From assembly GCA_035541435.1 (NCBI GenBank), contig DATKNL010000002.1, positions 67,962 through 131,961 on the forward strand: DNA of 64,000 nucleotides. Direction: 5' to 3'. Below the pieces are notes generated by a model, which saw only the letters and a program-made list of their open reading frames with translations, was not told where the DNA came from and did no database searches. This DNA comes from Minisyncoccota bacterium. Lineage in GTDB: Bacteria > Patescibacteriota > Minisyncoccia > UBA6257 > 2-01-FULL-56-20. Made by a program: the position numbers and the translations under genes. Shown piece after piece: positions 8,195 to 62,556 of the stretch; the first letter of the stretch is position 1; each line of letters starts with the position of its first letter.

Positions 8195-8818
8195 TCACAG
8201 CACCCGGCTTCGCGCGATATCGAACCATGACGGATCAACCTCGTCGAGCGCTTCGACAAGGCCGGGGCCGTCGATCAGTTCGAGCGGCAGGCCTTTCGCC
8301 CATGAGCGGGCGGCCGCCGTATAGCCCGCGGTCGTCACGAAAAATCCCTTGTCGGCCTTGACCTTCAACATGCTGCCATAGAGGTCGCGGATCGGGGGTT
8401 CCCCGATCTTCTTGTCCGCGCGGTAGTGCTTCACCTGCGCGACGGCGGTCGCGCCGTCTTTCTTAAGGACAAGATCGAGGCCGTGGTCCCCCGTCTTGCC
8501 GGTAACGGTGACGTCATATCCCCAATGCTCGAAAAGCCATCCGATCAGCTTTTCGAACGCGCGGTCGTCGATCGTCGCGAGATCGCTCATAGCGATGGCG
8601 GCAAGCCACAGGCTGCTCTGCCGGCGCTTCCTCCTGAAGACGCTCACGGCGACGGCGATAATCAGGACGGCAGCGAGGACCGCGAGCACCGTGACGATCG
8701 TCGCACCGCTCGGCTTGAAAACCACGAGGCCCGCCAGCACGACAAGCGCCGCGAGGACCGCGAGCGCGTTGCCCGGCGAGGACTGCTTGCGATAATACCG
8801 TCTGCGGCGGCGCGACAT
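8195..8818 (-). CDS. Membrane-anchored restriction-endonuclease-like (Mrr_cat domain) protein
   Basis: 207 aa. N-terminal Arg-rich segment plus TM helix, C-terminal Mrr catalytic-like region (WGYDVTVTGKTGDHGLDLV...QVKHY...GFFVTTAGYT). Confidence 0.6.
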   Translation of the reverse strand: MSRRRRRYYRKQSSPGNALAVLAALVVLAGLVVFKPSGATIVTVLAVLAAVLIIAVAVSVFRRKRRQSSLWLAAIAMSDLATIDDRAFEKLIGWLFEHWGYDVTVTGKTGDHGLDLVLKKDGATAVAQVKHYRADKKIGEPPIRDLYGSMLKVKADKGFFVTTAGYTAAARSWAKGLPLELIDGPGLVEALDEVDPSWFDIARSRVL

Positions 8819-8859
8819 GAGGTGTAGCGTTTAGTATACAAAATTCGACGATACTCAGT

Positions 8860-8888
8860 TTGACAACGTAGCTAGCCTATTATATAAT
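8860..8888 (+). promoter_or_regulatory. Consensus sigma-70 promoter TTGACA-N17-TATAAT for gene 8941
   Basis: Perfect -35 and -10 hexamers at 17-bp spacing in an AT-rich gap, followed by AAGGAGA RBS and ATG at 8941. Confidence 0.55.
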
Positions 8889-8940
8889 TAGCTCGGTATT
8901 TTGGAAATCGAAATCACTGCACAGACAAGGAGAAGAAGCG

Positions 8941-10779
8941 ATGTTTTACATCATGGTGTCGCTCGTGAGCGCGTTCGTCGGGGCTCTTCCTTTGCTTTTC
9001 AAACGGAAGATCAATGCCGCGATCGTGCAGGGTCTGATTACCGCGATCGTTGGATACTGCCTCATTTACCTCCTGGCTCCTTCGACGGCATATCCGCTGC
9101 TCGGGGCGCCTGGACTGCTGACGGTAATCTGGTGGGTCTTCGCCGCCGTCATAGATGGCTCGCAGGAGAACGAAGTCACCGCTCTTGTCGTAGTCCCGAT
9201 CTTCGGGATCATCCTTTATGCGGTCGTCGGCTTGTCCGGATGGGAAGCGTTTCGCGCAAGCGATTACGCCAACATGATGGGCTCGGTGGACGTGCGCGAA
9301 TGGACGCAGGATGTTCAACCCAAGGATCCTGCCCATATGCGCATGAGCACGAAAGAGAATGCCCTCTATCAGGCGAAGAAGGTCATGGGAAAGGATGGAG
9401 CCATCGGCAGCCAGTTCGAGATCAGCGAAGACAACATGACGCTCCAGATGATCCGCGGGGAACTCTGGTACGTCGTTCCACTGGATTATTCCGGGTTCGG
9501 CGTATGGATGAACTCTCGGGGAGTCCCGGGATACATCAAGGTTCATGCCGAGGATCCCCATCGGGAACCTGAGCTCGTAATACTGAAAGATGACGAGCTT
9601 ATGCACTACACGCCGGGTGCCTACTTTGGCAACGACTTAGAGCGGCACCTCCGGAATCGTGGCTATCTCAACAAGCTGCTTTCCGATTGGACCTTCGAGG
9701 TCGATGAGGACGGGCATGACTGGTGGGTGGTCACGGTTTCCGAACCGACCATCGCATGGTGGGGTGAGCGCGTTTCCGGCGTCGCGATCGTGAATCCGTC
9801 TACCGGCGATGACACGTTCTATCCGCTCGGGAAAGTTCCCGATTGGGTGGACCGAGTCATTCCTCAGCATATCGTGAAAGATTACCTTGCATGGCAAGGC
9901 GACCTGTCCGGAGGCTGGTGGAACAGCTGGTGGGGAGCCGTAAACCTCACGGAACCCGAGACGCCGAATCTCATCTATGGTTCCGGCGATCAGCCCGAAT
10001 GGGTGACCGGCATCACGTCTTCGAACGGCAAAGATGACTCGCTCGTGGCGTTGGTGTATACCAATTCACGAACCGGGAAATCTGTCCGTTATGTGATGAA
10101 GGGCGGAGGCACCGATACGGCCATCCTTGATGCCGTGAACAAGAACAGCCAGGTTCAGTTCAAGCACCTGCATGGCGTGGCGCCGCAGATCTACAACGTG
10201 TATGGTCAGCCGACGAGCGTCATCCCGTTGTTCAACGAAAGCCATTCGTACCAAGGCGTCGCCATGGTTCCCATCAACGACATCCAAACGGTGGCGGTGG
10301 GTGGCGACCAATATGAGGCGCTCCGTTCGTACGAACAGCTCCTCTCCGAGGCGGGCCAGCGCGTCGCGTTGGACAAAGAGCGCACCCTGCAAACCATCGA
10401 GGGGGTCGTCGACCGCTTTAGCGCGGAGGTTACGAGCAGCGGAGGTACGGTCTATTACCTTCACCTCCCTGGCATTTCGTGCCTCTTTACTGCCGGCGCC
10501 GGCGCATCAGCGAAGCTGCCGGTAACGAAAGAGGGCGATAAGGTGAAGATCGAGTTCTATGCATCGGACCGCGATGTGGTCCCGATCCATGGGTTCGATA
10601 ATCTTTCCCTTGTCCTCTCGGCCAGCAAAGTACAACAGCAGGTTCGCGCCGAAGTGAAGGAACGGCAAGGCACTCAGGAAGTTCGATCCGATACGCAGAC
10701 CGTCGTGAACCGGATCCAACAAATGTCGCCCGAGGATTTGCAAAAGCTGAAATCGCAAGTCCCTCCTCAGTCGCAGTGA
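8941..10779 (+). CDS. Hypothetical membrane-anchored extracytoplasmic protein (612 aa)
   Basis: Strong RBS. Three N-terminal TM helices then a large Trp-rich soluble domain. No recognizable catalytic motifs. Confidence 0.6.
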   Translation: MFYIMVSLVSAFVGALPLLFKRKINAAIVQGLITAIVGYCLIYLLAPSTAYPLLGAPGLLTVIWWVFAAVIDGSQENEVTALVVVPIFGIILYAVVGLSGWEAFRASDYANMMGSVDVREWTQDVQPKDPAHMRMSTKENALYQAKKVMGKDGAIGSQFEISEDNMTLQMIRGELWYVVPLDYSGFGVWMNSRGVPGYIKVHAEDPHREPELVILKDDELMHYTPGAYFGNDLERHLRNRGYLNKLLSDWTFEVDEDGHDWWVVTVSEPTIAWWGERVSGVAIVNPSTGDDTFYPLGKVPDWVDRVIPQHIVKDYLAWQGDLSGGWWNSWWGAVNLTEPETPNLIYGSGDQPEWVTGITSSNGKDDSLVALVYTNSRTGKSVRYVMKGGGTDTAILDAVNKNSQVQFKHLHGVAPQIYNVYGQPTSVIPLFNESHSYQGVAMVPINDIQTVAVGGDQYEALRSYEQLLSEAGQRVALDKERTLQTIEGVVDRFSAEVTSSGGTVYYLHLPGISCLFTAGAGASAKLPVTKEGDKVKIEFYASDRDVVPIHGFDNLSLVLSASKVQQQVRAEVKERQGTQEVRSDTQTVVNRIQQMSPEDLQKLKSQVPPQSQ

Positions 10780-10979
10780 TTGAATTCAACCCTCGGCCCG
10801 CCATGCACCAACCAGTGCGATGCGGGCTGATTTTTTTGTCTCGAAAATTTGCAGTCCCAAGGGGAATCGCCCCGCGGCTCACGCGCTCGCCGTCGCTCGC
10901 GCGTGGCCTGGGCACCGCCTCACGGATTTTCTCTGCTGAGAAAATCCGCTCCGGCGGTCCGATTCCTCTTTGAGAAAAC

Positions 10980-11098
10980 CGACAAAACAAAACATGCCTC
11001 GGTAAGGGCTCTCGGAGGCGCGATGAGCGCCGAGAGCTGAGGCGCGCATCCAGCAGGACGCGACGCCGCACCTTACCGAGGCATGTTTTGCTTTGTCA
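10980..11098. repeat. Long inverted repeat (27-bp arms, 1 mismatch, ~63-nt loop) abutting the tRNA-Glu 3' end
   Basis: GACAAAACAAAACATGCCTCGGTAAGG at 10980-11006 vs its reverse complement at 11072-11098. A second perfect 10-bp hairpin lies at 10923-10946. Confidence 0.6.
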
Positions 11099-22121: not shown

Positions 22122-23049
22122 GCTGCTTCTGCGTCGCTTTTCGCGTATAATGAATCGCATGGATCCCATGACCGCAACCTATGTCGACCGGGCTCAGAAT
22201 GAGCTCACCGAGCACCTTGTCTATGGCAAGCTCGCCGCGCGCGAGAAGAACCCGCACAACCGCGCGCTCCTCGAACGGCTTTCGGCCTCCGAAAAGACGC
22301 ACTATGAGTTTTGGAAGACGCTCGCTCCCGAAGCCGAGCACGTGAAGCCGCGCAAAACGGGCCTCATCGGCATCCCCCTTTTGCGCTCGGCGCTCGGCAT
22401 CACCTTCGTCACGAAATTCCTCGAGGGCCACGAACGGGATGCGATCTCGACCTATCGCGAGATGCTGAAGACGATCGCCCCCGAGCACCGTCAGCGGCTC
22501 GAGGCGATCATCAAGGACGAGGAATCGCACGAGCAGGGGCTGCTCACCCAGCTCCAGGAGCGCCGCATCGCCTATATCGGCTTCATTGCGCTCGGCCTGT
22601 CGGACGCGATCGTCGAGATCACCGGCGTCCATGCCGGCTTCCTCGGCGTCACCGGCTCCACGCTCATCGCGGGCGTTTCGGGCATCATCGTCGGCTTCGC
22701 CGCCGCGATATCGATGGGATCGGCCGCCTATATCCAGGCCAAGCAGGATCCCGACAAATCCCCGGTCCCGTCCGCCCTATCCACCGGCCTCACCTATCTC
22801 GGATCGGTCATCATGCTCGCCCTCCCCTATTTCCTCATCCGCACCATGGTCGTGGCCTTCGTCATCTCGACGGGCATCGGCGTCCTGCTGCTCGCCGGGT
22901 TCATCTTCTTCAGCGCCGTGGTCTTCGACAAGCAGTTCTTCCGCGAGTTCGGCGAGTCGGTGGGTCTCATGCTCGGAACCGCCCTTGCGACCTACGTCCT
23001 CGGCACCGTCGTCGGATCGGTCTTCCACCTCAATCAGGCAAGCTTCTAA
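22120..23049 (+). CDS. Ferritin-like (rubrerythrin-type) domain fused to a VIT1/CCC1-family iron/manganese transporter domain
   Basis: N-terminal four-helix ferritin-like region (EKTHYEFW...EESHEQ), C-terminal polytopic VIT1-like region. True start probably an internal ATG (22150/22159/22168), since a TATAAT sits at 22145-22150. Confidence 0.7.
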   Translation: MLLLRRFSRIMNRMDPMTATYVDRAQNELTEHLVYGKLAAREKNPHNRALLERLSASEKTHYEFWKTLAPEAEHVKPRKTGLIGIPLLRSALGITFVTKFLEGHERDAISTYREMLKTIAPEHRQRLEAIIKDEESHEQGLLTQLQERRIAYIGFIALGLSDAIVEITGVHAGFLGVTGSTLIAGVSGIIVGFAAAISMGSAAYIQAKQDPDKSPVPSALSTGLTYLGSVIMLALPYFLIRTMVVAFVISTGIGVLLLAGFIFFSAVVFDKQFFREFGESVGLMLGTALATYVLGTVVGSVFHLNQASF

Positions 23050-26066: not shown

Positions 26067-27122
26067 TCAGGCCGGCCCCGTGCCGGTTTTTTTGCGCAAA
26101 ATGACGAACGGCGTCATCTCGTCGGACTGCCCTGCCGGATTGTCGCGGAACGCCCGCATGATGAACGGTTCCGTGATCGCGCGCGACGTCTTGCCGAGTG
26201 AGAACGCGCCGCGGTAGTTCGCGTCGACGATCACCGCCTCGCAGCCGAACCGCTCCCTAATCGCGCGCGCGACGCCGTCCGGGTCGAGCGGGGCGAGCTT
26301 CGCCGCGTGGGCGTACTCGAGAATGAGGAACGACATCGGGCAGTCGATCGACTTCGCGCGCTTGCCGCAGATGCGATAGAACATGCCGCGGATGCCGAGC
26401 GGCCGCGTCACCGCCGCGACGGCCGCGGCGAAGAGCACGCGCGGATAGCCGGCCTCCTCGATGAACAGCTGCATGGCGATCGACGTGCCGTGGCCGAAGC
26501 CGCGGAAGTCCGCCGAACCATAGGCGTTGCCGATGTTACGGGCGAGGAACCGCGCGAGGCCGGTCGGCCTGATCGTCCCGATGTCGACGACGCGCTGCTG
26601 CACGATGCAGACGGCCTTCTCGCTCACGAAAAGGATGTCGCCAGGCCTGAGGTGCGGGCCCGCATAGTTCGCGATGATCGGCATGAGGTCCGTGTCGTCC
26701 ATCGTGATGAGCCGCGTGCGCACGGGCAGGCGCTCGTAGGTCATGCCGTCAACGTCGATCTCGATCGTCTTGCCGGGGTTCGGCGCGAGCTCCGCCGACG
26801 GCTTCACCTCTTTTGCCGGCGCGCGGTCATAGGTGACGCGCTCGCCGCGGAAGGCGGCGAAAAGCTTCTCGACAAGCGGACGGATCGCATCGAATCCTTC
26901 GCCGAGCTTCGCGCGCGACCGCAGAAGCTCGGTCGCCTCCATATAAAGGATGTGCGCCTCGTCGACGCGGTCCGGCCCGAACGAGGCCTCGGCGATGACG
27001 GCGCCGTCGCCTTTCGCGGCCTTCAGGGTGACTCGGCCGCTCCCCACGGGATCATACGCGATCGCGATCCCCGTTCCCGCAAGCATGTCGTCATACGCGA
27101 GCTGTCGCTCCTTGAAGGGCAT
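26067..27122 (-). CDS. CofE-like (F420-0:gamma-glutamyl ligase family fold) amide-ligase-like protein with extra N-terminal domain
   Basis: C-terminal ~200 aa resemble CofE-family (GDILFVSEKAVCIVQQR ~ GDVLVVSSK..AEGR; LAPLDPDG...AVIVDANYR ~ LPPLDPDG..VIITDTNGR). N-terminal 150 aa unassigned. Confidence 0.45.
   Translation of the reverse strand: MPFKERQLAYDDMLAGTGIAIAYDPVGSGRVTLKAAKGDGAVIAEASFGPDRVDEAHILYMEATELLRSRAKLGEGFDAIRPLVEKLFAAFRGERVTYDRAPAKEVKPSAELAPNPGKTIEIDVDGMTYERLPVRTRLITMDDTDLMPIIANYAGPHLRPGDILFVSEKAVCIVQQRVVDIGTIRPTGLARFLARNIGNAYGSADFRGFGHGTSIAMQLFIEEAGYPRVLFAAAVAAVTRPLGIRGMFYRICGKRAKSIDCPMSFLILEYAHAAKLAPLDPDGVARAIRERFGCEAVIVDANYRGAFSLGKTSRAITEPFIMRAFRDNPAGQSDEMTPFVILRKKTGTGPA
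26070..26093 (+). terminator. Rho-independent terminator after DoxX gene (overlaps 3' end of convergent gene)
   Basis: GCCGGC-CCCGT-GCCGG hairpin plus TTTTTTT. Confidence 0.5.
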
Positions 27123-27125
27123 TTT

Positions 27126-27154
27126 TTGACTGTATCATTAAAGCTTTATAAAAT
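27126..27154 (+). promoter_or_regulatory. Promoter TTGACT-N17-TAAAAT for panD (leaderless: -10 ends 6 nt before ATG)
   Basis: -35 and -10 hexamers at 17-bp spacing; ATG at 27161, no room for an SD. Confidence 0.45.
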
Positions 27155-27160
27155 GAACCC

Positions 27161-27544
27161 ATGCTCATCCGCGCCTGCATGGCGAAAATCCACCGCGCGA
27201 CCGTGACCCAGGCCGACCTCAACTATGTCGGCTCCGTCACGATCGACCAGGACCTCCTCGACGCGAGCGGCCTCGTTCCCTATCAGATGGTGAACATCAA
27301 CAACCTCGCGAACGGGACCTTCTGGCAGACCTATGTGATTCCCGGCAAGCGGGGTCAGGGAACGATCTGCCTCAACGGCCCGCCGGCGCGCCACTTCCAG
27401 CCCGGCGACAAGGTGATCATCATCGGCGAAGCCTATCTCGAGCCGAGCGAGCTCGGCAGCCTGAATCCCGTCGTCGTTTTCGTCGACGACAGAAACAAGG
27501 TGACGAAGATCGAGAAGCACAACGCGCTCGAAGTGGCGGAATAG
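27161..27544 (+). CDS. panD: Aspartate 1-decarboxylase (pyruvoyl-dependent)
   Basis: KIHRATVTQADLNYVGSVTID and the GS|VTID self-cleavage region; overall match to PanD over ~115 aa. Confidence 0.9.
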   Translation: MLIRACMAKIHRATVTQADLNYVGSVTIDQDLLDASGLVPYQMVNINNLANGTFWQTYVIPGKRGQGTICLNGPPARHFQPGDKVIIIGEAYLEPSELGSLNPVVVFVDDRNKVTKIEKHNALEVAE

Positions 27545-27619
27545 GACCGGATTAGGACGGACCAGCGAATAAGAAACGGCCGTTGCGCATGACGCAACGG
27601 CCTTGTTGATTGACGGCGA

Positions 27620-28696
27620 CTACGAGAAGAGTTCCCAGGAGAACGGCGGCACGAACCATTCCGGCTTCGTGTGGAACGGGACGTTCGCCATGAAGCGGTC
27701 CCCATAGGCCCGGGACCCGTCCGGAAACACCATGAGCACCCGCACCCGGCCGTCGTTGTGACGATGGCTGTCGAGGCGCCCCGCGAGCTTCTCCCCGGCG
27801 AGGAACCGGTTCGCCGCGACGCGGACCATGCCGCTGCTCGGGCCGCCGGTGACGCCGCCGAACCGGTGGTCGATCGCAGCCAGACGGTAGCAGGGGTCTT
27901 TCGGGACCTCGACCACCTGATTGACGGCCTTCTCCCACGGCAGCGAGACCTCCTTCATGCGGGCGCGGTCGCGCACGCCGGGGACCTCCTCGCCATCCTC
28001 GAGCAGCGCACCGACGACCGTGACGTTATTATCCCCCAGCTGCTGTTTGAAGAACCGGCTGAGACCGATGACCGTCCCTCCGGTGCCGATGTCGGCCACC
28101 AGGACGTCGATCGACTTCTCGGGCAGCTCTTCGAAAACGGCGGGACCGGTCAGGAATTCATGGATGCGGTAGCCGGCGGGGTTTGCGTATTGGTCGAGGT
28201 TTCGGGCAACGCCCTCTTTGTGCATGGCGCGGGCGGTCGCAATGCCGCTCATGCCAGGCCGCGGATGGATGATCTCCGCCCCCGTAAGGACGAGCGGATC
28301 GCGCTTGCCATCGGGGAGGTCGCTGTTCACGACGAGGATGACGCCTGGGGCGTTGAACGGGTGCGCGACACCGAGATAGCCGAGCGCGATCCCGGTATTC
28401 CCAGAGGTCGCCTCGACCAACGGCTTGTCGGAGAGGTCGATCTCCCGGTCTTTGGCGTCCACGAGCAGGCCTAAGACCGTCAGGAATTTTATGTTTTCGT
28501 ACGGCAACCGGTACATGATCGCCGCATAAAGGTCCACGCCGTCGCTATAGAACGGGTTGAGGATCGGCGGAATTTCCCAGATCGGAATGTCGAGGGACCA
28601 TGCGTCCACCTTTGGAGAGGTGGTCCGGCTATCGAGGTACCGATCGAGATACAGGTTGCGGATTGCCACGGCAGCTCCTTTCGTAATCGAACTCAT
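27620..28696 (-). CDS. PLP-dependent enzyme of the cysteine synthase / Trp-synthase-beta (fold type II) family
   Basis: Start reassigned to MSSITKG at 28696. SGNTGIALGY motif and ADIGTGGTV glycine-rich PLP-phosphate loop. Confidence 0.75.
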   Translation of the reverse strand: MSSITKGAAVAIRNLYLDRYLDSRTTSPKVDAWSLDIPIWEIPPILNPFYSDGVDLYAAIMYRLPYENIKFLTVLGLLVDAKDREIDLSDKPLVEATSGNTGIALGYLGVAHPFNAPGVILVVNSDLPDGKRDPLVLTGAEIIHPRPGMSGIATARAMHKEGVARNLDQYANPAGYRIHEFLTGPAVFEELPEKSIDVLVADIGTGGTVIGLSRFFKQQLGDNNVTVVGALLEDGEEVPGVRDRARMKEVSLPWEKAVNQVVEVPKDPCYRLAAIDHRFGGVTGGPSSGMVRVAANRFLAGEKLAGRLDSHRHNDGRVRVLMVFPDGSRAYGDRFMANVPFHTKPEWFVPPFSWELFS

Positions 28697-28772
28697 AACA
28701 ATGCTGCAGCTGCGGCAATCATAGCCCCGGCGCCCCGAAATCGCAACCGTCCCGCCGGCTGCCTGGGGCGGC

Positions 28773-29873
28773 CTATCTGAGCGCAAGGAACGCCTGCAGA
28801 TAATCGACGGCGATGCCGCCATAAGAGGCGTCGTTCGCAAAGGCGCCATCGATGGCGGCCGTCGCGCCATAGAGGTCGTCCTTCGACATGCCGAAGAAGG
28901 TAATCGAGCGCGGCGAGACGTCGCCCGCCTCCTGCGCCACGATCACCTGCACGCCCGTGCCGTCGGCGGCCCGCACCTCGTCGCCCGCGAGCGCCACCGA
29001 TCCCCCGCCGCCCGTCACCACGTTGCGGTACGCGAGCACCATCACGCGGCCGCTGCCGGCGGGCAGCGCGCCGAGCGCGCGGACGACGTGATTGAACGGA
29101 TAGTCTGCCACGCCGCCGATCACGATCTTCGGAACCGTCCCGTGATCCGACGAATAGAAATACGGGACGATCATCGTAAGCGGCAGCGGCGCCGAGGACG
29201 AGGCCGTGGACGATGCCGCAGCCGCCTGGTCGCGCGAGACGAGGTTCCTCACGAGGCCGACATAGTCGGCAAGCACCGTCGCGGGATCGGTCGCGTAATC
29301 AGGCAGCGAGTAGGACTCGACGTCGAACTGCACGCCGCGGAACTTGCCGTCATGCGTCGCGTTGAACGATTGGACGAAGCTCATGACCGCATACGGCTGC
29401 CAATAATACTGCGGCTCGCCCCAGTCGATCTCGCCCGCCTCGGCGTCGACCGCGATGCCGCGCTGGTGCGCGATCGAGATGAACTCATAGAGCGCGTTCG
29501 AGAACCGTGCGAACGCGGCCTGCTTCGCCGCGCCGGCACGCAGGTTGTAGATGTTGAGGTAAGGATCGATCGAAAGGTAGATCGCGTTGAAATGGCTGTC
29601 AGCCGCATCGTCAACGATCTGCTGCATCGTCGACGTGGGCATCTGCGCTATGGGGTTCCAGACCCACGTGCCGATCTCTTTGTTGGTCATCACGCCGAAC
29701 GGGGTCGACGTGGGCGCGGGCGGCCCGGACGGGGTCGACGTCGCGCCGCTGCTGCCGATGCCCGGTACGGCCTGGTTGCGCGGGGCGACAAGCAGCGTCA
29801 AAAGGACGGCAAGGACGGCTACGCCCACGAGAGCAAGCTTGCCCCGGCTAACGGTGAATCGGCCCATCTGCAT
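28773..29873 (-). CDS. Secreted/anchored hypothetical protein, putative TIM-barrel glycoside-hydrolase-like (paralog A)
   Basis: N-terminal signal/TM. Shares GIAVDAEAGE, RGVQFDVE, VMVLAYRN and VQVIVAQE blocks with paralog 30166-31632. Confidence 0.55.
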   Translation of the reverse strand: MQMGRFTVSRGKLALVGVAVLAVLLTLLVAPRNQAVPGIGSSGATSTPSGPPAPTSTPFGVMTNKEIGTWVWNPIAQMPTSTMQQIVDDAADSHFNAIYLSIDPYLNIYNLRAGAAKQAAFARFSNALYEFISIAHQRGIAVDAEAGEIDWGEPQYYWQPYAVMSFVQSFNATHDGKFRGVQFDVESYSLPDYATDPATVLADYVGLVRNLVSRDQAAAASSTASSSAPLPLTMIVPYFYSSDHGTVPKIVIGGVADYPFNHVVRALGALPAGSGRVMVLAYRNVVTGGGGSVALAGDEVRAADGTGVQVIVAQEAGDVSPRSITFFGMSKDDLYGATAAIDGAFANDASYGGIAVDYLQAFLALR

Positions 29874-30165: not shown

Positions 30166-31632
30166 ATGAATTTCAGCGTTCAGGGAAGCCGCGGGCGGCA
30201 ATTCCTCACCGCCGCATTCGCCGCGCTCCTCATCGGAGCGACCGGCGCAACCGCAGCCTCCTTTGTCAGCGTTCCTTCCCCTCTTACGGCCAGCATCGCA
30301 AGCGCCGCGGCAGCGACGCCCTGCATGCCGAGCCTCACCCTGCAGACCACGAGCGGCAACGCGTATCAGGGTACGTCCATGAGCTATCTCATCACGGCCG
30401 TGAATTCCGGTGGCATCGCATGCACCAACACGGTCGTCACCCTCTATTACGCAGCCAACGAGCACTTTGGTTCGTCATCGCCGTCACCGGCTCCCGGCAG
30501 TTACTATTGGAACATCGGGACCATGGCGACCGGATCGCATGAAAGCATCCGGCTCGTGACCAACCGCAACGCGGACCTCGCCTCGGGCCAGCTCACCGAC
30601 GCCGCATGCGTGGGAGCCTCGAACGGGACCCGCACCTGCGGCCACACCGCGCCGGTCGCCGGACCGACGGTGGTCGTCCAGGCAGGACCCGTGCAGCCCG
30701 CTCCCGCTCCCGTTCATGTCACCGCCCCCGCTTCGGCGCCAGCGCCGTCGTCGGTCGCCCAGCCCGCAGTCGCCCTTCCCGGATCGTCCGAGAGCGGCGT
30801 CTGGGAATGGACCTCGGCCTATGGCATGACGCCCTCAGCGGCCCAGCAGATCGTGAACAACGCGTCGGCAGGCGGGTTCAACGTGATCTATGAGACCGTT
30901 GACTCGTCGTTCAACCTGAGCGGCACCGCCCTCGCGAACTACGAATCGTCCCTCAACACGCTCCTCACCCTCGCCGCAGAGAAAGGCATCGCGGTCGATG
31001 CCGAAGCCGGCGCAAGCGACTGGGCCCTCGCGGGCGGATGGAGCAAGCCCGAAGCCATCGTGAGCTTCGTCGCGAACTACAACCAGTCGCACGCGGTCAA
31101 GTTCCGCGGCGTGCAGTTCGACATCGAGCCCTACACGCTCGCCCAATACGCCTCGAGCCCCGCAAGCGTGCTCACGAGCTACGTACAGATGGTCGAAGCG
31201 GTCACGAACGTCGACCGCACTTATGGCCTCCCGCTCGGGTTCGACGTCCCGTTCTTCTATACGGCACCGACAGGCGCCCCTCAGGTCACGGTTGACGGCA
31301 TTACGACCTATCCGATCAACCATCTCGTGCGGCTCCTCAACACCCTGCCGAACGGCCGCCTGCTCGTGATGTCCTATCGCAACACCGCTGCCGGGTCGAA
31401 CGGAACCGTCGCCATCGCGACGCCCGAAATCCAGGCAGCGAACGGCACCAACGTGAAAGTGATCGTCGGACAGGAAACGAGCAACGTCACGCCGAGCTAC
31501 ATCACCTTCTATGGCATGACGAAGGCGCAGATGGCGACGCAGGTTGCCGCAGTCCGGCAGTCGCTCGCCTCGAACCCGTCCTTCGGCGGCATGGCGACCC
31601 ACTACCTCGAGACCTATATGCAGCTCCCCTAA
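30166..31632 (+). CDS. Secreted hypothetical protein: N-terminal DUF11-like beta domain + putative glycoside-hydrolase-like domain (paralog B)
   Basis: Signal peptide, ~180-aa extra N-terminal domain, C-terminal domain paralogous to 28773-29873 (GIAVDAEAGASDW, RGVQFDIEPY, LLVMSYRN, VKVIVGQE). Confidence 0.55.
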   Translation: MNFSVQGSRGRQFLTAAFAALLIGATGATAASFVSVPSPLTASIASAAAATPCMPSLTLQTTSGNAYQGTSMSYLITAVNSGGIACTNTVVTLYYAANEHFGSSSPSPAPGSYYWNIGTMATGSHESIRLVTNRNADLASGQLTDAACVGASNGTRTCGHTAPVAGPTVVVQAGPVQPAPAPVHVTAPASAPAPSSVAQPAVALPGSSESGVWEWTSAYGMTPSAAQQIVNNASAGGFNVIYETVDSSFNLSGTALANYESSLNTLLTLAAEKGIAVDAEAGASDWALAGGWSKPEAIVSFVANYNQSHAVKFRGVQFDIEPYTLAQYASSPASVLTSYVQMVEAVTNVDRTYGLPLGFDVPFFYTAPTGAPQVTVDGITTYPINHLVRLLNTLPNGRLLVMSYRNTAAGSNGTVAIATPEIQAANGTNVKVIVGQETSNVTPSYITFYGMTKAQMATQVAAVRQSLASNPSFGGMATHYLETYMQLP

Positions 31633-42069: not shown

Positions 42070-42831
42070 CTAGGCTTCCTTTTTGGCGGCCTTCTTCTTT
42101 TTGCCGCCTTCGGCGACGGGCGGTTCGAAGTCCTTCACCTCGACGGCCGAAACCTTCTCGAAGTGGTCCTTCAAAATATTGCCTGCCTTGTGGAGCGCCG
42201 AGGACGGGCTCACCGTGCCGTCGGTCGTCACCTCGAGGCGGAGGCGGTTATAGTCGGTGCGGTCGCCGACGCGCATGTCGTCGATCGTGAAGTTGACCTT
42301 CTCGACCGGCGTGAAGATCGCGTCGACCGCGATCGTGCCGATCGGCAGGCGGCCTTCGCTCTTGCGGGCCTCGACGGGGACGTATCCCAGACCGCGCTCG
42401 ATCTTCACCTCGATGTCGAGCTCGGCGTCCTTCGCCGTGAGCGTGCCGATCACCTCGTCGGGATTCATGATCTCGATGTTCGCGTTTGCCTCGATGTCGG
42501 CGGCCGTGACGACGGTCTCGCCCTTGGCCTTGAGGGCCAGGACCTGCGGCTCGTCGACGTGCATGCGGATGCGGATCTTCTTGAAATTGAGCGCGAGCTC
42601 GACGATGTCCTCTTTGAGGCCCGGAAGGGTCGAGAACTCGTGCGGCACGTTCTTGATCTTGATCTCGGTCACCGCGGCGCCCGGCAGCGACGACAGGAGC
42701 GCGCGGCGGAGGGCGTTGCCGACCGTGAGGCCGTAGCCGGCGTAAAGGCCCTCGATCTCGAACACGCCGTTCTTCGCGTCTTCGGAAACGGTCTTGATGG
42801 AAACGGTTGAGCTCAGATAGGCAAATTCCAT
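42070..42831 (-). CDS. rpoA: DNA-directed RNA polymerase alpha subunit, NTD only (253 aa, no alpha-CTD)
   Basis: Alpha NTD dimerisation/assembly motifs (GYGLTVGNALRRALLSS, VTEIKI). Ends after NTD with a Lys-rich tail; no linker/CTD sequence before rplQ. Confidence 0.9.
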   Translation of the reverse strand: MEFAYLSSTVSIKTVSEDAKNGVFEIEGLYAGYGLTVGNALRRALLSSLPGAAVTEIKIKNVPHEFSTLPGLKEDIVELALNFKKIRIRMHVDEPQVLALKAKGETVVTAADIEANANIEIMNPDEVIGTLTAKDAELDIEVKIERGLGYVPVEARKSEGRLPIGTIAVDAIFTPVEKVNFTIDDMRVGDRTDYNRLRLEVTTDGTVSPSSALHKAGNILKDHFEKVSAVEVKDFEPPVAEGGKKKKAAKKEA

Positions 42832-59526: not shown

Positions 59527-62500
59527 TCATCGATTCAGCACCCTTACCACCCCCTCGTTTGCGTCAACCTCAATCCAGTCGCCGTCATTTATCACGTCGG
59601 TAGCTATTCTGGTGCCGATAACGCAAGGCTTCTTAAACTCCCTCGCAATAATGGCGGCGTGACTCGTGACTCCGCCTTCGTCGGTGACGAAAGCGGCCGA
59701 TCTTTTCATCGCCGGCAGATAGTCGGGCATCGTCATGGGACTAATCAGGATCTCGCCCTCTTTCAAGGTCGGCACATCCTTAAGGCTCATGATTTTTCTT
59801 GCAATGCCGCGAACTTTACCCCGGTGAGCGGATTGGCCCGAAAACTCCTTGATAGCGTCAGGCGCCTCAGAAACAATGGCGATATTAAATTTTTCTTCCA
59901 TTTCCCTAACACCCGCACCGACGAATAATGTTGCATCCGCAAAGGAATAGCTCTTCGTCCTGGCCTTCAATTCCCTCAATGAGGGCAGCTCCTTGGAATT
60001 GATTTCTTCGATGGTCAAAGCCGCCGAGAGCTTGCCTAGTTTTGGGAATATTTTAAGCAGTGAATTTCTTATCACGATGTCGCCATTCGGCACCATCGTT
60101 TCAGTGGAAACCCTAGCCCTTTTAACAATACGAAACGCTTTGCTGGTCGAACTTGCCATTTCCATCGTCCACCATACCGATTCGAACCAGGCCCACGCAT
60201 CCTCCAGATGAGCCATGAAGCTGACCAGCGTCTTATGGTTCAGCGTTCTTTTCCCTTTCCAAATTGGCTCGATATCCTTCGCCCTTTTATAAAATTCTCT
60301 TACGCATTTCTCGACGAACTTTTTATCCCTTTTCATGGACCTTCTCAGTTCGCCTTTTATCCAATCGATCCCTGCCTCATCGAGATAATCAGTAACCAGG
60401 CCATTCTCTCTGACGAAGATTTGATAAGGCAGCCTTGGATTGGTTCTGGCCGTCCATTGCCTTGGATTGGTAGTTTCAGCTCGGCACCACATCTGAATGA
60501 TCGGCAGGCAAAAATCTCGGACATAGGATTTGACATAGGTGCCTCTGATTTTCTTGCCCGATCCCGAGACGCTCGATCCCGCTATCCTTCTAACCCTTCC
60601 CTTGTCTGCATCGACCTCCACCATGTCGCCGTCCTTAAAGAATTCTGTCGCTATCTTCGTTCCGATGATGCAGGGTTTTCTAAGTTCCCTGGCAACGATT
60701 CCAGCGTGACACGTTATTCCACCTTCATCCGTGACAAAAGCCAGCGCCTTCTTCATAGCCGGCAAGAAGTCCGGCGTAGTCATAGGAGATACGATCACGT
60801 CGCCTTCTTTGACTTCCCCAACCTGATCCCGTCGCCGGAGTATCTTCACGCGGCCAACCACTCTGCCTTTTTGGGCTATTTCTCCGGCAATGACATTAGG
60901 ATCATTGATAGCGATGGATTCCTTTTCAAATGAGAATTGAGGATTTACATTTTCAAAGTCAGACAAGGTGCCAATAAAATGGTTTTTACCCTGAACAATA
61001 AGCGAGTGCCGCTTGCGGTCCTTCAGTGTCCTGTTGGCAGGAATCTTCCTAAGTTCGCTGATAAAAATCGCGGTTTCATAATGTTTTGCCCGCGGATATA
61101 AAGCGGAGATGCTGTCCATTATTACGATGTCATTTCGCGCAAAGAACTCATCCTTATTGCGCATCGCAAGAGCCTTTTTTCTGATGGGTTTTGGCGTTTT
61201 GTCGTCAACGGCGGAATAGTAATAAGCAATGAAGTAAGGGATTGCTTCCTTGGAAAGCTCAATGAGTTTAATGAGCTTACTCATCGGAAGCGGCGCCATC
61301 TTCCACAGTTCATGAATCGCATCGAGCCTGATTCTATATTCCCCGAGGATCTTGTCGATAAATTTCGGATTTCTTCTGTTTTCCTTCAAAATGGCATTTT
61401 CCAACCATTCGGTGGCTTTTACGTTCTCCCAAATTTCGATGCTTCCCTGATTCATGTAATGGATAATCCCAGGCAGATAAGGGTTCTTCCAACCAAATTC
61501 TCCTTCGACACCGTCAGAACATCCGAATGCCCATATCTCCTGCATGATATAGGTGGTATCACGGGTATATATCTTTTTGAACTTTATAGGATCGTCTTTT
61601 TCCTTCTTTGGCCAAGACAACGTCGTAATGGGCCGCGACTGCACGATATAAAATTTTCCCTTTTCCAAGGCCCATTCAATATCACACGGAAAACCATATT
61701 GGTCTTCGATGCGAAGAATCAATTTCGACAACTCGAGGATTTGCTTGTCGGGAAGAGCTTGCTTACCTGCTTTCGATTTGGAAATATCTTTCCACTCGTT
61801 TTCGCCCCTCGGCAAACGATAGAGTCCTCTGCCTTTTTTCGGGATTATCCGCTCAATAATTTTTCTTGGTTCTTTTTCGATTACATAGCTATCAGGAGTG
61901 ACTTGGCCGGAAACGATTGCTTCGCCCAACCCATAGCTTGCCTCGATGATAAGCTGGTTGCGATCCTGCGTTACTGGATGGACCGAAAAGGCGACGCCCG
62001 AAACCTCGCTCTCGACCATCTTTTGAACGACCACGGCGACGGAAATTTTTTCGGCGCGAAGCCCCTTCTCGAAGCGGTAGAAAATGGCGCGGGGCGTAAA
62101 GAGTGACGCCCAGCAGCGTTTCACATTTTCTAAAAGATTGCCTCCAGTGGTATTTAAAAAGCTATCCAGCTGCCCCGCCCACGCCGCCGATGAGCCGTCC
62201 TCGGCCGTTGCGCTGGAACGCACCGCGACGAATTTAGCTCCCAATTTCTTGAAGTTTCTTTTGATCTCCATGGCGACGTCCTCTGGCATTTCAGTGCCGA
62301 TAATGATCGCCCTGATTTCCTCGGATGCCCGCTCGACGCTGGCCGTGTTTCGATGCTTTATCTTATGCAAAATGGCATCTATGTCAGCTGCAATCCCCTG
62401 CTCTTCAATGAACTTTTCGAAGGCTGTCGAAAGAATGACGAAACCGGACGGAACCGGAAGGCCCGCTTGCGTCATTTCCCCAAGTGACGCTCCCTTGCCA

Positions 62501-62556
62501 CCAGCAAGCGCGACATCCTTTTTGCTCAACCCTTCAAAGTCCCGCGAGAATTCCAT
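59527..62556 (-). CDS. PEP-synthase / rifampin-phosphotransferase-like protein: N-terminal PPDK_N ATP-grasp nucleotide-binding domain plus two PEP-utilizing-enzyme mobile (phospho-His swivel) domains; no PEP/pyruvate TIM-barrel domain
   Basis: 1009 aa. N-terminus (ALAGGKGASLGEMTQAGLPVP...VAVRSSATAEDG...) is PpsA/PPDK_N-like. Swivel 1 ~aa 575-680 (GDVIVSPMTTPDFLPAMKKALAFVTDEGGITCHAGIVARELRKPCIIG) and swivel 2 ~aa 905-1009 (GEILISPMTMPDYLPAMKRSAAFVTDEGGVTSHAAIIAREFKKPCVIG), each preceded by a helical region. The gene is visibly AT-richer than the genome background. Confidence 0.75.
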   Translation of the reverse strand: MEFSRDFEGLSKKDVALAGGKGASLGEMTQAGLPVPSGFVILSTAFEKFIEEQGIAADIDAILHKIKHRNTASVERASEEIRAIIIGTEMPEDVAMEIKRNFKKLGAKFVAVRSSATAEDGSSAAWAGQLDSFLNTTGGNLLENVKRCWASLFTPRAIFYRFEKGLRAEKISVAVVVQKMVESEVSGVAFSVHPVTQDRNQLIIEASYGLGEAIVSGQVTPDSYVIEKEPRKIIERIIPKKGRGLYRLPRGENEWKDISKSKAGKQALPDKQILELSKLILRIEDQYGFPCDIEWALEKGKFYIVQSRPITTLSWPKKEKDDPIKFKKIYTRDTTYIMQEIWAFGCSDGVEGEFGWKNPYLPGIIHYMNQGSIEIWENVKATEWLENAILKENRRNPKFIDKILGEYRIRLDAIHELWKMAPLPMSKLIKLIELSKEAIPYFIAYYYSAVDDKTPKPIRKKALAMRNKDEFFARNDIVIMDSISALYPRAKHYETAIFISELRKIPANRTLKDRKRHSLIVQGKNHFIGTLSDFENVNPQFSFEKESIAINDPNVIAGEIAQKGRVVGRVKILRRRDQVGEVKEGDVIVSPMTTPDFLPAMKKALAFVTDEGGITCHAGIVARELRKPCIIGTKIATEFFKDGDMVEVDADKGRVRRIAGSSVSGSGKKIRGTYVKSYVRDFCLPIIQMWCRAETTNPRQWTARTNPRLPYQIFVRENGLVTDYLDEAGIDWIKGELRRSMKRDKKFVEKCVREFYKRAKDIEPIWKGKRTLNHKTLVSFMAHLEDAWAWFESVWWTMEMASSTSKAFRIVKRARVSTETMVPNGDIVIRNSLLKIFPKLGKLSAALTIEEINSKELPSLRELKARTKSYSFADATLFVGAGVREMEEKFNIAIVSEAPDAIKEFSGQSAHRGKVRGIARKIMSLKDVPTLKEGEILISPMTMPDYLPAMKRSAAFVTDEGGVTSHAAIIAREFKKPCVIGTRIATDVINDGDWIEVDANEGVVRVLNR

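Follow-up and report, generated by a model that had tools for sequence, protein, structure and literature searches.

Genomic linkage of a PanD-like decarboxylase, a CofE-fold putative amide ligase, and an aspergillomarasmine A synthase-like enzyme in Paceibacteria

In the staphyloferrin B pathway, SbnA makes a 2,3-diaminopropionate-type unit from O-phosphoserine, SbnE forms an amide, and SbnH decarboxylates to leave an ethylenediamine unit. Here, we analyze three adjacent genes of a Minisyncoccota bacterium that encode a PanD-like pyruvoyl-dependent decarboxylase, a protein resembling the F420-0:gamma-glutamyl ligase CofE, and a fold-type-II pyridoxal 5'-phosphate (PLP) enzyme. They occupy positions 26067-28696 of a 64,000-nucleotide stretch of DNA (assembly GCA_035541435.1, contig DATKNL010000002.1, positions 67,962 to 131,961 of the forward strand), hereafter the window. 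A previous reading of the DNA without database searches (the sequence-only reading) had called the trio at this place and suggested that it could make a beta-alanine- or diaminopropionate-containing metabolite rather than pantothenate; all three open reading frames (ORFs) are indeed present there. If the trio works as we propose below, it would share the logic of SbnA/SbnE/SbnH and of related aminopolycarboxylate pathways of the ethylenediaminedisuccinate (EDDS) type, with unrelated folds for two of the three steps: its ligase has a predicted CofE fold and is not an NIS (nonribosomal peptide synthetase-independent siderophore) synthetase, its decarboxylase is a pyruvoyl-dependent enzyme of the PanD fold and not a PLP-dependent one, and a SbnB-like dehydrogenase is not part of the trio.

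Arg54, Ala74, and Ala75 are strictly conserved in aspartate decarboxylases, with Arg54 as a specificity determinant (PMC3314653) that binds the beta-carboxylate of isoasparagine (PMC3975893). In Mycobacterium tuberculosis PanD, the backbone NH groups of Ala74 and Ala75 hold the ligand carboxylate together with Arg54, and the R54A mutant is inactive (PMC6969166). Aspergillomarasmine A (AMA) synthase joins O-phosphoserine to the amine of L-aspartate, and the related fungal enzyme Fda4 uses L-alanine; both make C-N bonds from O-phosphoserine and an amino-acid amine (PMC12751119; bioRxiv 10.1101/2025.10.30.685158).

There is strong evidence that the three genes form one functional module and are not chance neighbors. 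A scan of one genome per GTDB species returned 128 matching stretches, from which 80 loci were kept, and linkage was counted by tblastn and ORF analysis in 81 independent genome loci carrying the CofE-like gene, with a distance cut-off of 6 kb. Within that distance, panD is found in 52 of the 81 loci, a homologue of the PLP gene in 40, and both in 38. Where at least 6 kb of flank is available on each side (37 loci), the corresponding counts are 29 (78%), 20, and 20, while a single-copy gene would fall by chance inside a 12-kb interval of an approximately 1-Mb genome in only about 1 to 2% of cases. Most of the loci carry the labels Paceibacterota, Parcubacteria, or Kaiser-, Lipton-, Taylor-, Adler-, Colwell-, or Jorgensenbacteria. 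The remaining ones are labeled less specifically (e.g., "bacterium," "uncultured bacterium," or "uncultured Candidatus Saccharibacteria"), and one locus is a 2.6-kb contig binned as Acidimicrobiales.

The order and orientation of the trio have been reshuffled repeatedly, and the closeness of the genes has been retained. The arrangements (arrowheads give orientation) include panD< cofE> plp>, in which the CofE-like and PLP genes are in tandem with gaps of -23 to +82 bp; panD> cofE> plp<; and a fused panD-cofE gene. In genomes with a short-form CofE-like protein (~238 amino acids), the arrangement is cofE> c4< c3< (PAP2< VIT1< or P-ATPase>) plp< panD<, with panD and the PLP gene in tandem. The CofE-like and PLP genes are co-directional and in tandem in at least 12 loci. 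Fusions of panD and the CofE-like gene into a single ORF occur in four genome loci (L002, L022, L024, and L037), and the proteins with both PanD and F420_ligase domains fall into five distinct clusters (P0003, P0013, P0045, P0115, and P0120), one of which, P0013, is present on four contigs of different sources. Every pair among the three genes is therefore fused or in tandem in some locus.

The surroundings of the trio are not conserved in the same way. All-against-all clustering of ORFs from 82 loci, combined with a Pfam scan of 148 neighbors, revealed no fourth universally conserved partner; the sole recurrent families among the 148 were DsbA-like thioredoxins (6) and TrmB (4), and the neighbors of CofE-like genes that lack both panD and the PLP gene are heterogeneous. 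It is the combination of pairwise fusions and tandems with unconserved surroundings that leads us to conclude that the trio is one functional module. The suggestion that the three genes act as a unit therefore holds: synteny is kept in dozens of Paceibacteria genomes, including panD-CofE-like fusions and both CofE-like-to-PLP and panD-to-PLP tandems. A canonical pantothenate operon was rejected for this locus: scans of called genes and ORFs in the 64-kb window revealed no panB, panC, panE, or coa families, in line with the earlier remark that no panB, panC, or panE lies nearby, and the 148 neighbor proteins of related loci included no pan or coa gene products.

Several loci depart from these patterns. 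In L043, a second short CofE-like paralogue (35% identical; the copies lie at 8467-9216 and 10001-11047) is separated from the first by a TylF-like methyltransferase gene, and in L044 and L045 the N-terminal and the CofE-like domains are each encoded by an ORF of their own. A PAPS-reductase-family gene adjoins the PLP homologue in a genome with the P0013 fusion (L002:14020-14652, minus strand), a possible link to sulfur. Of the two additional genes beside the short-form CofE-like gene, c3 (25 loci; L031:11181-11747) encodes a secreted protein that resembles a 3D domain by eye, and c4 (23 loci; L031:11760-12419) encodes a 219-amino-acid protein whose Cys/His motifs recall a transglutaminase or papain-like fold. 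Neither has a Pfam match, and both are on the same strand as the panD-PLP pair.

The PanD-like protein combines an intact catalytic apparatus with a remodeled substrate site. It matches Pfam Asp_decarbox (PF02261; E = 6e-42, 142.6 bits versus a cut-off of 25) and has the same fold and length as the PanDs of Escherichia coli, M. tuberculosis, and Helicobacter pylori. An alignment with solved PanDs plus E. coli and M. tuberculosis PanD shows that the Gly24-Ser25 self-cleavage site and the self-processing and catalytic residues Lys9, His11, Tyr22, Thr57, Tyr58, Asn72, and Asn112 are kept, both in the window protein and in all of the 120 closest homologues listed (69-100% identity). In contrast to these PanDs, the window protein has Phe for Arg54, Trp for Phe55, and Pro-Pro for Ala74-Ala75. 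None of the 120 homologues has Arg54, all have Trp55 and Pro75, and 119 have Pro74. The 55 copies linked to a CofE-like gene have F, L, S, T, Y, or P at position 54 but in no case Arg (0/55), and most of them have Arg or Gln at position 56 (Arg in ~60%; Gln in the window copy). Judged from these alignments, the remodeled distal-carboxylate site is a property of the whole PanD-like subfamily. The subfamily also differs from PanD in being tied genomically to a ligase and a PLP enzyme instead of panB and panC. In two loci, L008 and L026, degenerate PanD-like ORFs of 272-292 amino acids with Lys9 changed to Glu and His11 to Val lie beside the CofE-like gene; these long proteins could be paralogues that are inactive or have diverged further.

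Because Arg54 is replaced and the prolines at positions 74 and 75 lack a backbone NH, all three donors to the distal carboxylate are lost from the window protein. With these donors lost and the decarboxylation machinery intact, we infer an alpha-amino acid substrate without a free carboxylate in its side chain; the protein is probably not a plain aspartate decarboxylase. Given also the inactivity of the R54A mutant of the M. tuberculosis enzyme, it is doubtful that this gene simply makes beta-alanine from aspartate, as the sequence-only reading had assumed.

The closest solved relative of the PLP enzyme, in both sequence and predicted fold, is AMA synthase. The protein has PALP as its sole Pfam domain (E = 9e-20). 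Its best sequence match in the PDB (phmmer) is 8h4q/8h4h (E = 6e-31, versus 6e-22 for CysM), and the same entries are the top Foldseek matches of its AlphaFold model (mean predicted local distance difference test [pLDDT] score, 91), with E = 2e-26, a query-normalized template-modeling (TM) score of 0.78, and ~29% identity (CysM, E = 1e-21). In the Foldseek entry titles, both structures are named "Aspergillomarasmine A synthetase," one in the apo form and one in complex with O-phosphoserine. The window enzyme shares with AMA synthase the N-terminal motifs IPxxEIPxxLNPFxxDGV, PGVR (PGVRD), and (L/F)PW, of which LNPF/DGV, PGVRD, and LPW are not found in CysM, and with both AMA synthase and Fda4 it shares the class of fold-type-II beta-replacement enzymes. 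It differs from AMA synthase in that the C-terminal rhodanese-like domain is missing and in that its asparagine loop is the CysK/CysM-type TSGNTG and not SSGSTV; AMA synthase and Fda4 come from fungal hosts, whereas this enzyme is bacterial.

The family alignment of the PLP enzyme, whose paceibacterial homologues have 316-382 amino acids, keeps the PLP lysine (Lys70), the EATSGNTG and GTGGT loops, and GPSSG. Because the PLP lysine and the loops are conserved, the enzyme appears competent for beta-replacement. The lysine, the substrate loop TSGNTG, the phosphate loop GTGGT, and the Ser at the pyridine nitrogen are also points of likeness to CysK/CysM. The enzyme was initially described as CysK/CysM/SbnA-like; the respective models score far below their equivalog cut-offs (cysKM, 95 bits versus 344; cysM, 94 versus 394; SbnA, TIGR03945, 45.5 versus 349.95).

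The third protein, identical to the product of NCBI locus VMT99_00685 on a 133-kb contig of a Candidatus Paceibacterota metagenome-assembled genome (MAG), matches Pfam F420_ligase (PF01996) at amino acids 134-198 only (E = 4.8e-8, 33.2 bits versus a cut-off of 25), over 67 of the 218 profile positions. It fails the CofE equivalog model TIGR01916 (20.3 bits versus 180.65) and is not a CofE orthologue. Because sequence searches against the PDB gave nothing significant (no hit with the single sequence and only E ~0.1 with a profile), a fold search was needed. Foldseek matched the AlphaFold model (pLDDT 78) to CofE entries only (2g9i/2phn/7uld, which include Archaeoglobus fulgidus CofE; E = 1e-7, probability 1.0, TM score on target 0.52-0.56). 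By this modeled structure, the C-terminal ~240 amino acids have the CofE fold, as the sequence-only reading had noticed for the C-terminal half. The N-terminal ~100 amino acids form an extra domain of three strands and two long helices, for which Foldseek found no PDB fold match.

The CofE-like protein shares this predicted fold with CofE and the N-terminal domain of FbiB, and its DxN(x)R and acidic motifs may correspond to theirs. About 100 of its 351 positions are invariant in the family alignment, including SEK, QGR, DCPMS, DANYRG, and DNPxGQSDEMTPF. DANYRG (D300-A301-N302-x-R304) aligns with the DTNGR motif of CofE, with Thr replaced by Ala, and motif inspection alone marks the invariant D260 and E335 as candidate further ligands of a nucleotide/metal site. 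It differs from CofE in its ~18% identity, the extra N-terminal domain, an internal insertion, and its membership in a separate large family that is often fused to glutamine-dependent asparagine synthase (AsnB), with no F420 genes seen around it. A role in F420 biosynthesis was rejected: the CofE equivalog model fails, and the genes and ORFs scanned in the window, like the top 25 Pfam families of the 148 related-locus neighbors, included no cofC, cofD, cofG, cofH, or fbiC.

That family is sizable. The CofE-like protein has 942 homologues in a set of 5.8 billion proteins, of which the 120 listed are 60-69% identical and, where a source is named, come from Patescibacteria. A HMMER search of 1.84 billion representatives returned 1,019 relatives, 584 of them at E <= 1e-10; the named members of the wider family are Nomurabacteria and Uhrbacteria. 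In many of these relatives, the CofE-like domain forms one end of a long protein. Of ten such proteins tested, six (P0269, P0280, P0291, P0299, P0344, and P0268) are AsnB fusions of 750-950 amino acids with the CofE-like domain C-terminal; the other partners are an M20 peptidase (P0258), a GNAT acetyltransferase (P0251), PlsY (P0255), and an HD domain (P0259). One AsnB fusion (L086:6266-8941) is followed directly by gatC-gatA-gatB, and two other AsnB-fusion loci have unrelated neighbors. On sequence grounds, the window protein represents a large CofE-fold family unrelated to F420. A function as a presumed nucleoside triphosphate (NTP)-dependent carboxylate-amine (amide) ligase fits, because the fusion partners act on amino-acid carboxylates and amines.

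We tentatively propose, with a confidence that falls a little short of even, that the trio constitutes one Paceibacteria-specific small-molecule pathway in which beta-replacement, amide ligation, and alpha-decarboxylation would yield a diaminopropionate- or beta-alanine-type conjugate and not pantothenate. The PLP enzyme would convert O-phospho- (or O-acetyl-) L-serine to aminoacrylate and add a nucleophile to it to give a 2,3-diaminopropionate-type conjugate or, alternatively, another beta-substituted alanine unit; the likeliest nucleophile is an amine, namely that of an amino acid (perhaps Asp or beta-Ala). The CofE-fold enzyme would form an amide after activating a carboxylate as an acyl phosphate at the expense of GTP or ATP. 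The PanD-like enzyme would then remove the alpha-carboxylate from a substrate whose side chain is neutral or N-substituted, free aspartate not being accepted; an N3-substituted diaminopropionate and a beta-aspartyl amide are candidate substrates, both of roughly the right size to fill the space of the aspartate side chain. Decarboxylation would leave a 2-aminoethyl or beta-alanyl unit, and the end product would be an aminocarboxylate or a small pseudo-dipeptide. From the PanD-ligase fusions, these two steps would seem to be consecutive. Of the two product types considered in the sequence-only reading, the diaminopropionate side is favored by the affinity of the PLP enzyme to AMA synthase.

Several observations weigh against this proposal. 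At 8 of the 37 well-flanked loci, neither panD nor the PLP gene is near the CofE-like gene, which shows that the ligase does not strictly depend on them. As the MAGs that supply the loci are related, the counts are phylogenetically non-independent. The PanD-like protein still scores above the trusted cut-off of TIGR00223 (131.2 bits versus 106), and Arg56, which would lie on the same strand face as residue 54, might partly replace Arg54 and retain activity on aspartate. The PLP enzyme is also similar to CysM and has no rhodanese-like domain, and its nucleophile could be sulfide. While the linkage, the residue changes, and the fold matches are direct results of our searches, we infer the substrates, the order of steps, and the product.

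Some of these observations would be accommodated by a variant supply of coenzyme A (CoA) precursors, which we consider unlikely. In such a variant, the PanD-like enzyme would make beta-alanine from aspartate (or cysteamine from cysteine), the PLP enzyme would make cysteine as CysM does, and the ligase would replace PanC or CoaB. It would link pantoate with beta-alanine, or (phospho)pantothenate with either cysteine or cysteamine. Beta-alanine and cysteine are CoA's two amino-acid building blocks. Databases label the decarboxylase gene as aspartate 1-decarboxylase, consistent with its TIGR00223 score, the PLP enzyme has all CysK/CysM active-site loops and good CysM matches, and a PAPS-reductase-family gene adjoins the PLP gene in L002. 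Moreover, pantothenate-to-CoA steps were reported in some Paceibacteria MAGs (PMC9166423). However, the removal of the distal-carboxylate triad contradicts aspartate as the substrate, although not cysteine, the PLP enzyme is nearer to AMA synthase than to any cysteine synthase, and pan and coa genes appear neither in the window scans nor among the 148 neighbors. The AsnB, M20, and GNAT fusions of the wider CofE-like family are also unfit for a role in pantothenate synthesis.

A role in modification of the cell envelope is quite unlikely. Here, the ligase would attach the beta-carboxyl of aspartate to an amine in a precursor of peptidoglycan or of another envelope component, and the PanD-like enzyme would convert the product to a beta-alanyl unit; in the AsnB-fused relatives, the alpha-carboxylate would instead be amidated to iso-asparagine. 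Precedents exist in Aslfm, which ligates D-Asp, and in AsnH, which amidates to iso-asparagine. This scheme would explain the PanD-like and AsnB fusions as two ways of neutralizing one alpha-carboxylate, and a beta-aspartyl amide would be consistent with the loss of the carboxylate-binding triad. The short-form panD-PLP pair lies on the same strand as the genes for the secreted 3D-domain-like protein, the Cys/His protein, and PAP2, and a Wzy_C gene is adjacent in L052. However, the PLP enzyme, the tightest-linked partner of panD, would be left without a role, and no Mur or Fem genes occur among the 148 Pfam-scanned adjacent neighbors. The AsnB fusions also lack a consistent context, with gatCAB next to one of them and unrelated genes at two other loci, and beta-alanine is, to our knowledge, not a constituent of peptidoglycan.

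The fusions and the divergent adjacency with panD would also fit a protein-protein partnership in which the CofE-like protein matures or regulates PanD, the PLP gene being an unrelated cysteine synthase. PanM/PanZ is a known precedent (PMC3398536). In the PanZ/PanM-PanD complex, a second protein is likewise tied to PanD genetically and physically. We regard this explanation as very improbable. PanZ is a small GNAT regulator, whereas the partner here has ~350 amino acids, an enzyme-like fold, and conserved catalytic-type motifs, with invariant acidic and DxN motifs that appear to align with the nucleotide/metal site of CofE. In addition, homologous domains occur without PanD (in the AsnB, M20, and GNAT fusions and at the eight well-flanked loci without panD), and the PLP gene repeatedly stands co-directional and in tandem with the CofE-like gene. 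Finally, that three unrelated housekeeping genes are adjacent by coincidence and inherited synteny is scarcely credible, because, even though shared ancestry within one bacterial class inflates the counts, proximity held through repeated reshuffling of order and orientation, independent gene fusions arose in five distinct clusters of different sources, and the flanking genes are otherwise unconserved.

Returning to a pathway that makes a diaminopropionate- or beta-alanine-type conjugate, its product may be related to metals. We suggest, as a doubtful extension, that the module makes a new aminocarboxylate or ethylenediamine-type metabolite in ultra-small Candidate Phyla Radiation (CPR) bacteria, possibly a metal chelator or buffer. 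Its ingredients would be a PanD-fold decarboxylase switched from aspartate to diaminopropionate or a beta-aspartyl conjugate, an AMA-synthase-like bacterial PLP enzyme forming C-N bonds, and an F420-independent CofE-fold amide ligase from a family of at least 584 representatives. Genes for P1B-type ATPases with a TPCP motif lie within a few kb of the module in 12 loci, VIT1 genes in 10, and NRAMP-like genes, named by eye and not by a Pfam scan, in 9 (examples of such transporters are L058:6986-8791, L060:12340-12852, and L006:7-1287). In the window, a VIT1/rubrerythrin-like gene (~22168-23049) lies ~3 kb from the module. The recurrent transporters are a weak hint of Fe/Mn/Zn handling, or they reflect inherited synteny.

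At the window locus itself (Table 1), the CofE-like gene and panD are divergent and 38 bp apart, with the predicted sigma-70-like promoter pointing at panD, while panD and the PLP gene are convergent, with the bidirectional hairpin between them. Two promoter sites were seen in the region, versus 0.4 expected. For the PLP gene, the promoter-like site on its 5' side favors 28696 or the alternative 28669 (349 amino acids, the ENA call) as the start over an upstream ATG at 28870. These predicted regulatory signals fit separate transcription units for the three genes.

Table 1. Predicted genes, domains, and signals of the three-gene locus, in window positions
Feature	Position	Strand	Details
CofE-fold putative NTP-dependent amide ligase, long form	26067..27122	-	351 amino acids
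CofE-like gene: CofE-like domain	26067 to ~26795	-	amino acids ~110-351
CofE-like gene: extra N-terminal domain	~26823-27122	-	amino acids 1 to ~100
Predicted sigma-70-like promoter TTGACT-17-TAAAAT	27126..27154	+	10/12 positions; in AT-rich 38-bp CofE-like/panD spacer
PanD-like pyruvoyl-dependent decarboxylase	27161..27544	+	127 amino acids; F54, W55, Q56, P74, P75
GC-rich hairpin with T-runs on both strands, bidirectional terminator-like	27578..27602	.	10-11 bp stem, 8 GC pairs
Fold-type-II PLP beta-replacement enzyme, AMA-synthase-like/CysM-like	27620..28696	-	358 amino acids
Promoter-like site 5' of PLP gene, TTGCGA-17-TATGAT	28718..28746	-	9/12 positions

The other genes of the window are typical CPR housekeeping genes (aminoacyl-tRNA synthetases, ribosomal proteins, MreBC, a penicillin-binding protein, RecG, DnaG, and RpoD), among which a restriction-endonuclease-like gene with Mrr_cat/NA-iREase1 similarity is located at 8195-8818 (minus strand). 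Just upstream of the PLP gene are two divergent paralogues, at 28773-29873 (minus strand) and 30166-31632 (plus strand), whose products are 39% identical over 302 amino acids (E = 2e-76) and apparently secreted, with hydrophobic signal-peptide-like N termini. The shorter one (28773-29873) has no Pfam match, and the contig annotation lists no precomputed Pfam hit for either. The GC content of the window is ~0.62, with a drop to 0.46 at 60001-62000, over a gene for a 1,009-amino-acid phosphoenolpyruvate-utilizing enzyme (PPDK_N/PEP-utilizers; 59527-62556, minus strand), and a milder dip to 0.52 at 38-40 kb, around TspO and genes without a Pfam match; both low-GC regions may have been acquired horizontally. 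In an independent ENA assembly of the same sample, the window is split into contigs k141_3760265 and k141_1383786, whose ends, by our own coordinate mapping, meet at ~42250-42390 inside rpoA (42070-42831) with an overlap of ~141 bp. This overlap equals the k-mer size suggested by the contig names, and the NCBI join at that point is putative.

Our literature search found no published description of this module in the library searched. The folds of the enzymes are known; what is new is their combination, the proposed switch in PanD specificity, and the F420-independent CofE-fold family. The PanD-like subfamily would be a clean natural case of a specificity switch in a well-studied pyruvoyl enzyme. 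In the PLP enzyme, bacteria would have an equivalent of a fungal enzyme that has drawn interest as a biocatalyst and because it yields a scaffold for metallo-beta-lactamase inhibitors. The CofE-like family, some of whose members are fused to AsnB, M20, or GNAT, makes up a sizable uncharacterized group of putative amide ligases. The database names "aspartate 1-decarboxylase," "cysteine synthase," and "F420 ligase" or "hypothetical" would lead to wrong pantothenate, cysteine, and F420 calls in CPR reconstructions. Patescibacteria are assumed to have nearly no biosynthesis, and a conserved, sometimes fused three-enzyme pathway in these bacteria implies that its product is likely not obtainable from their hosts.

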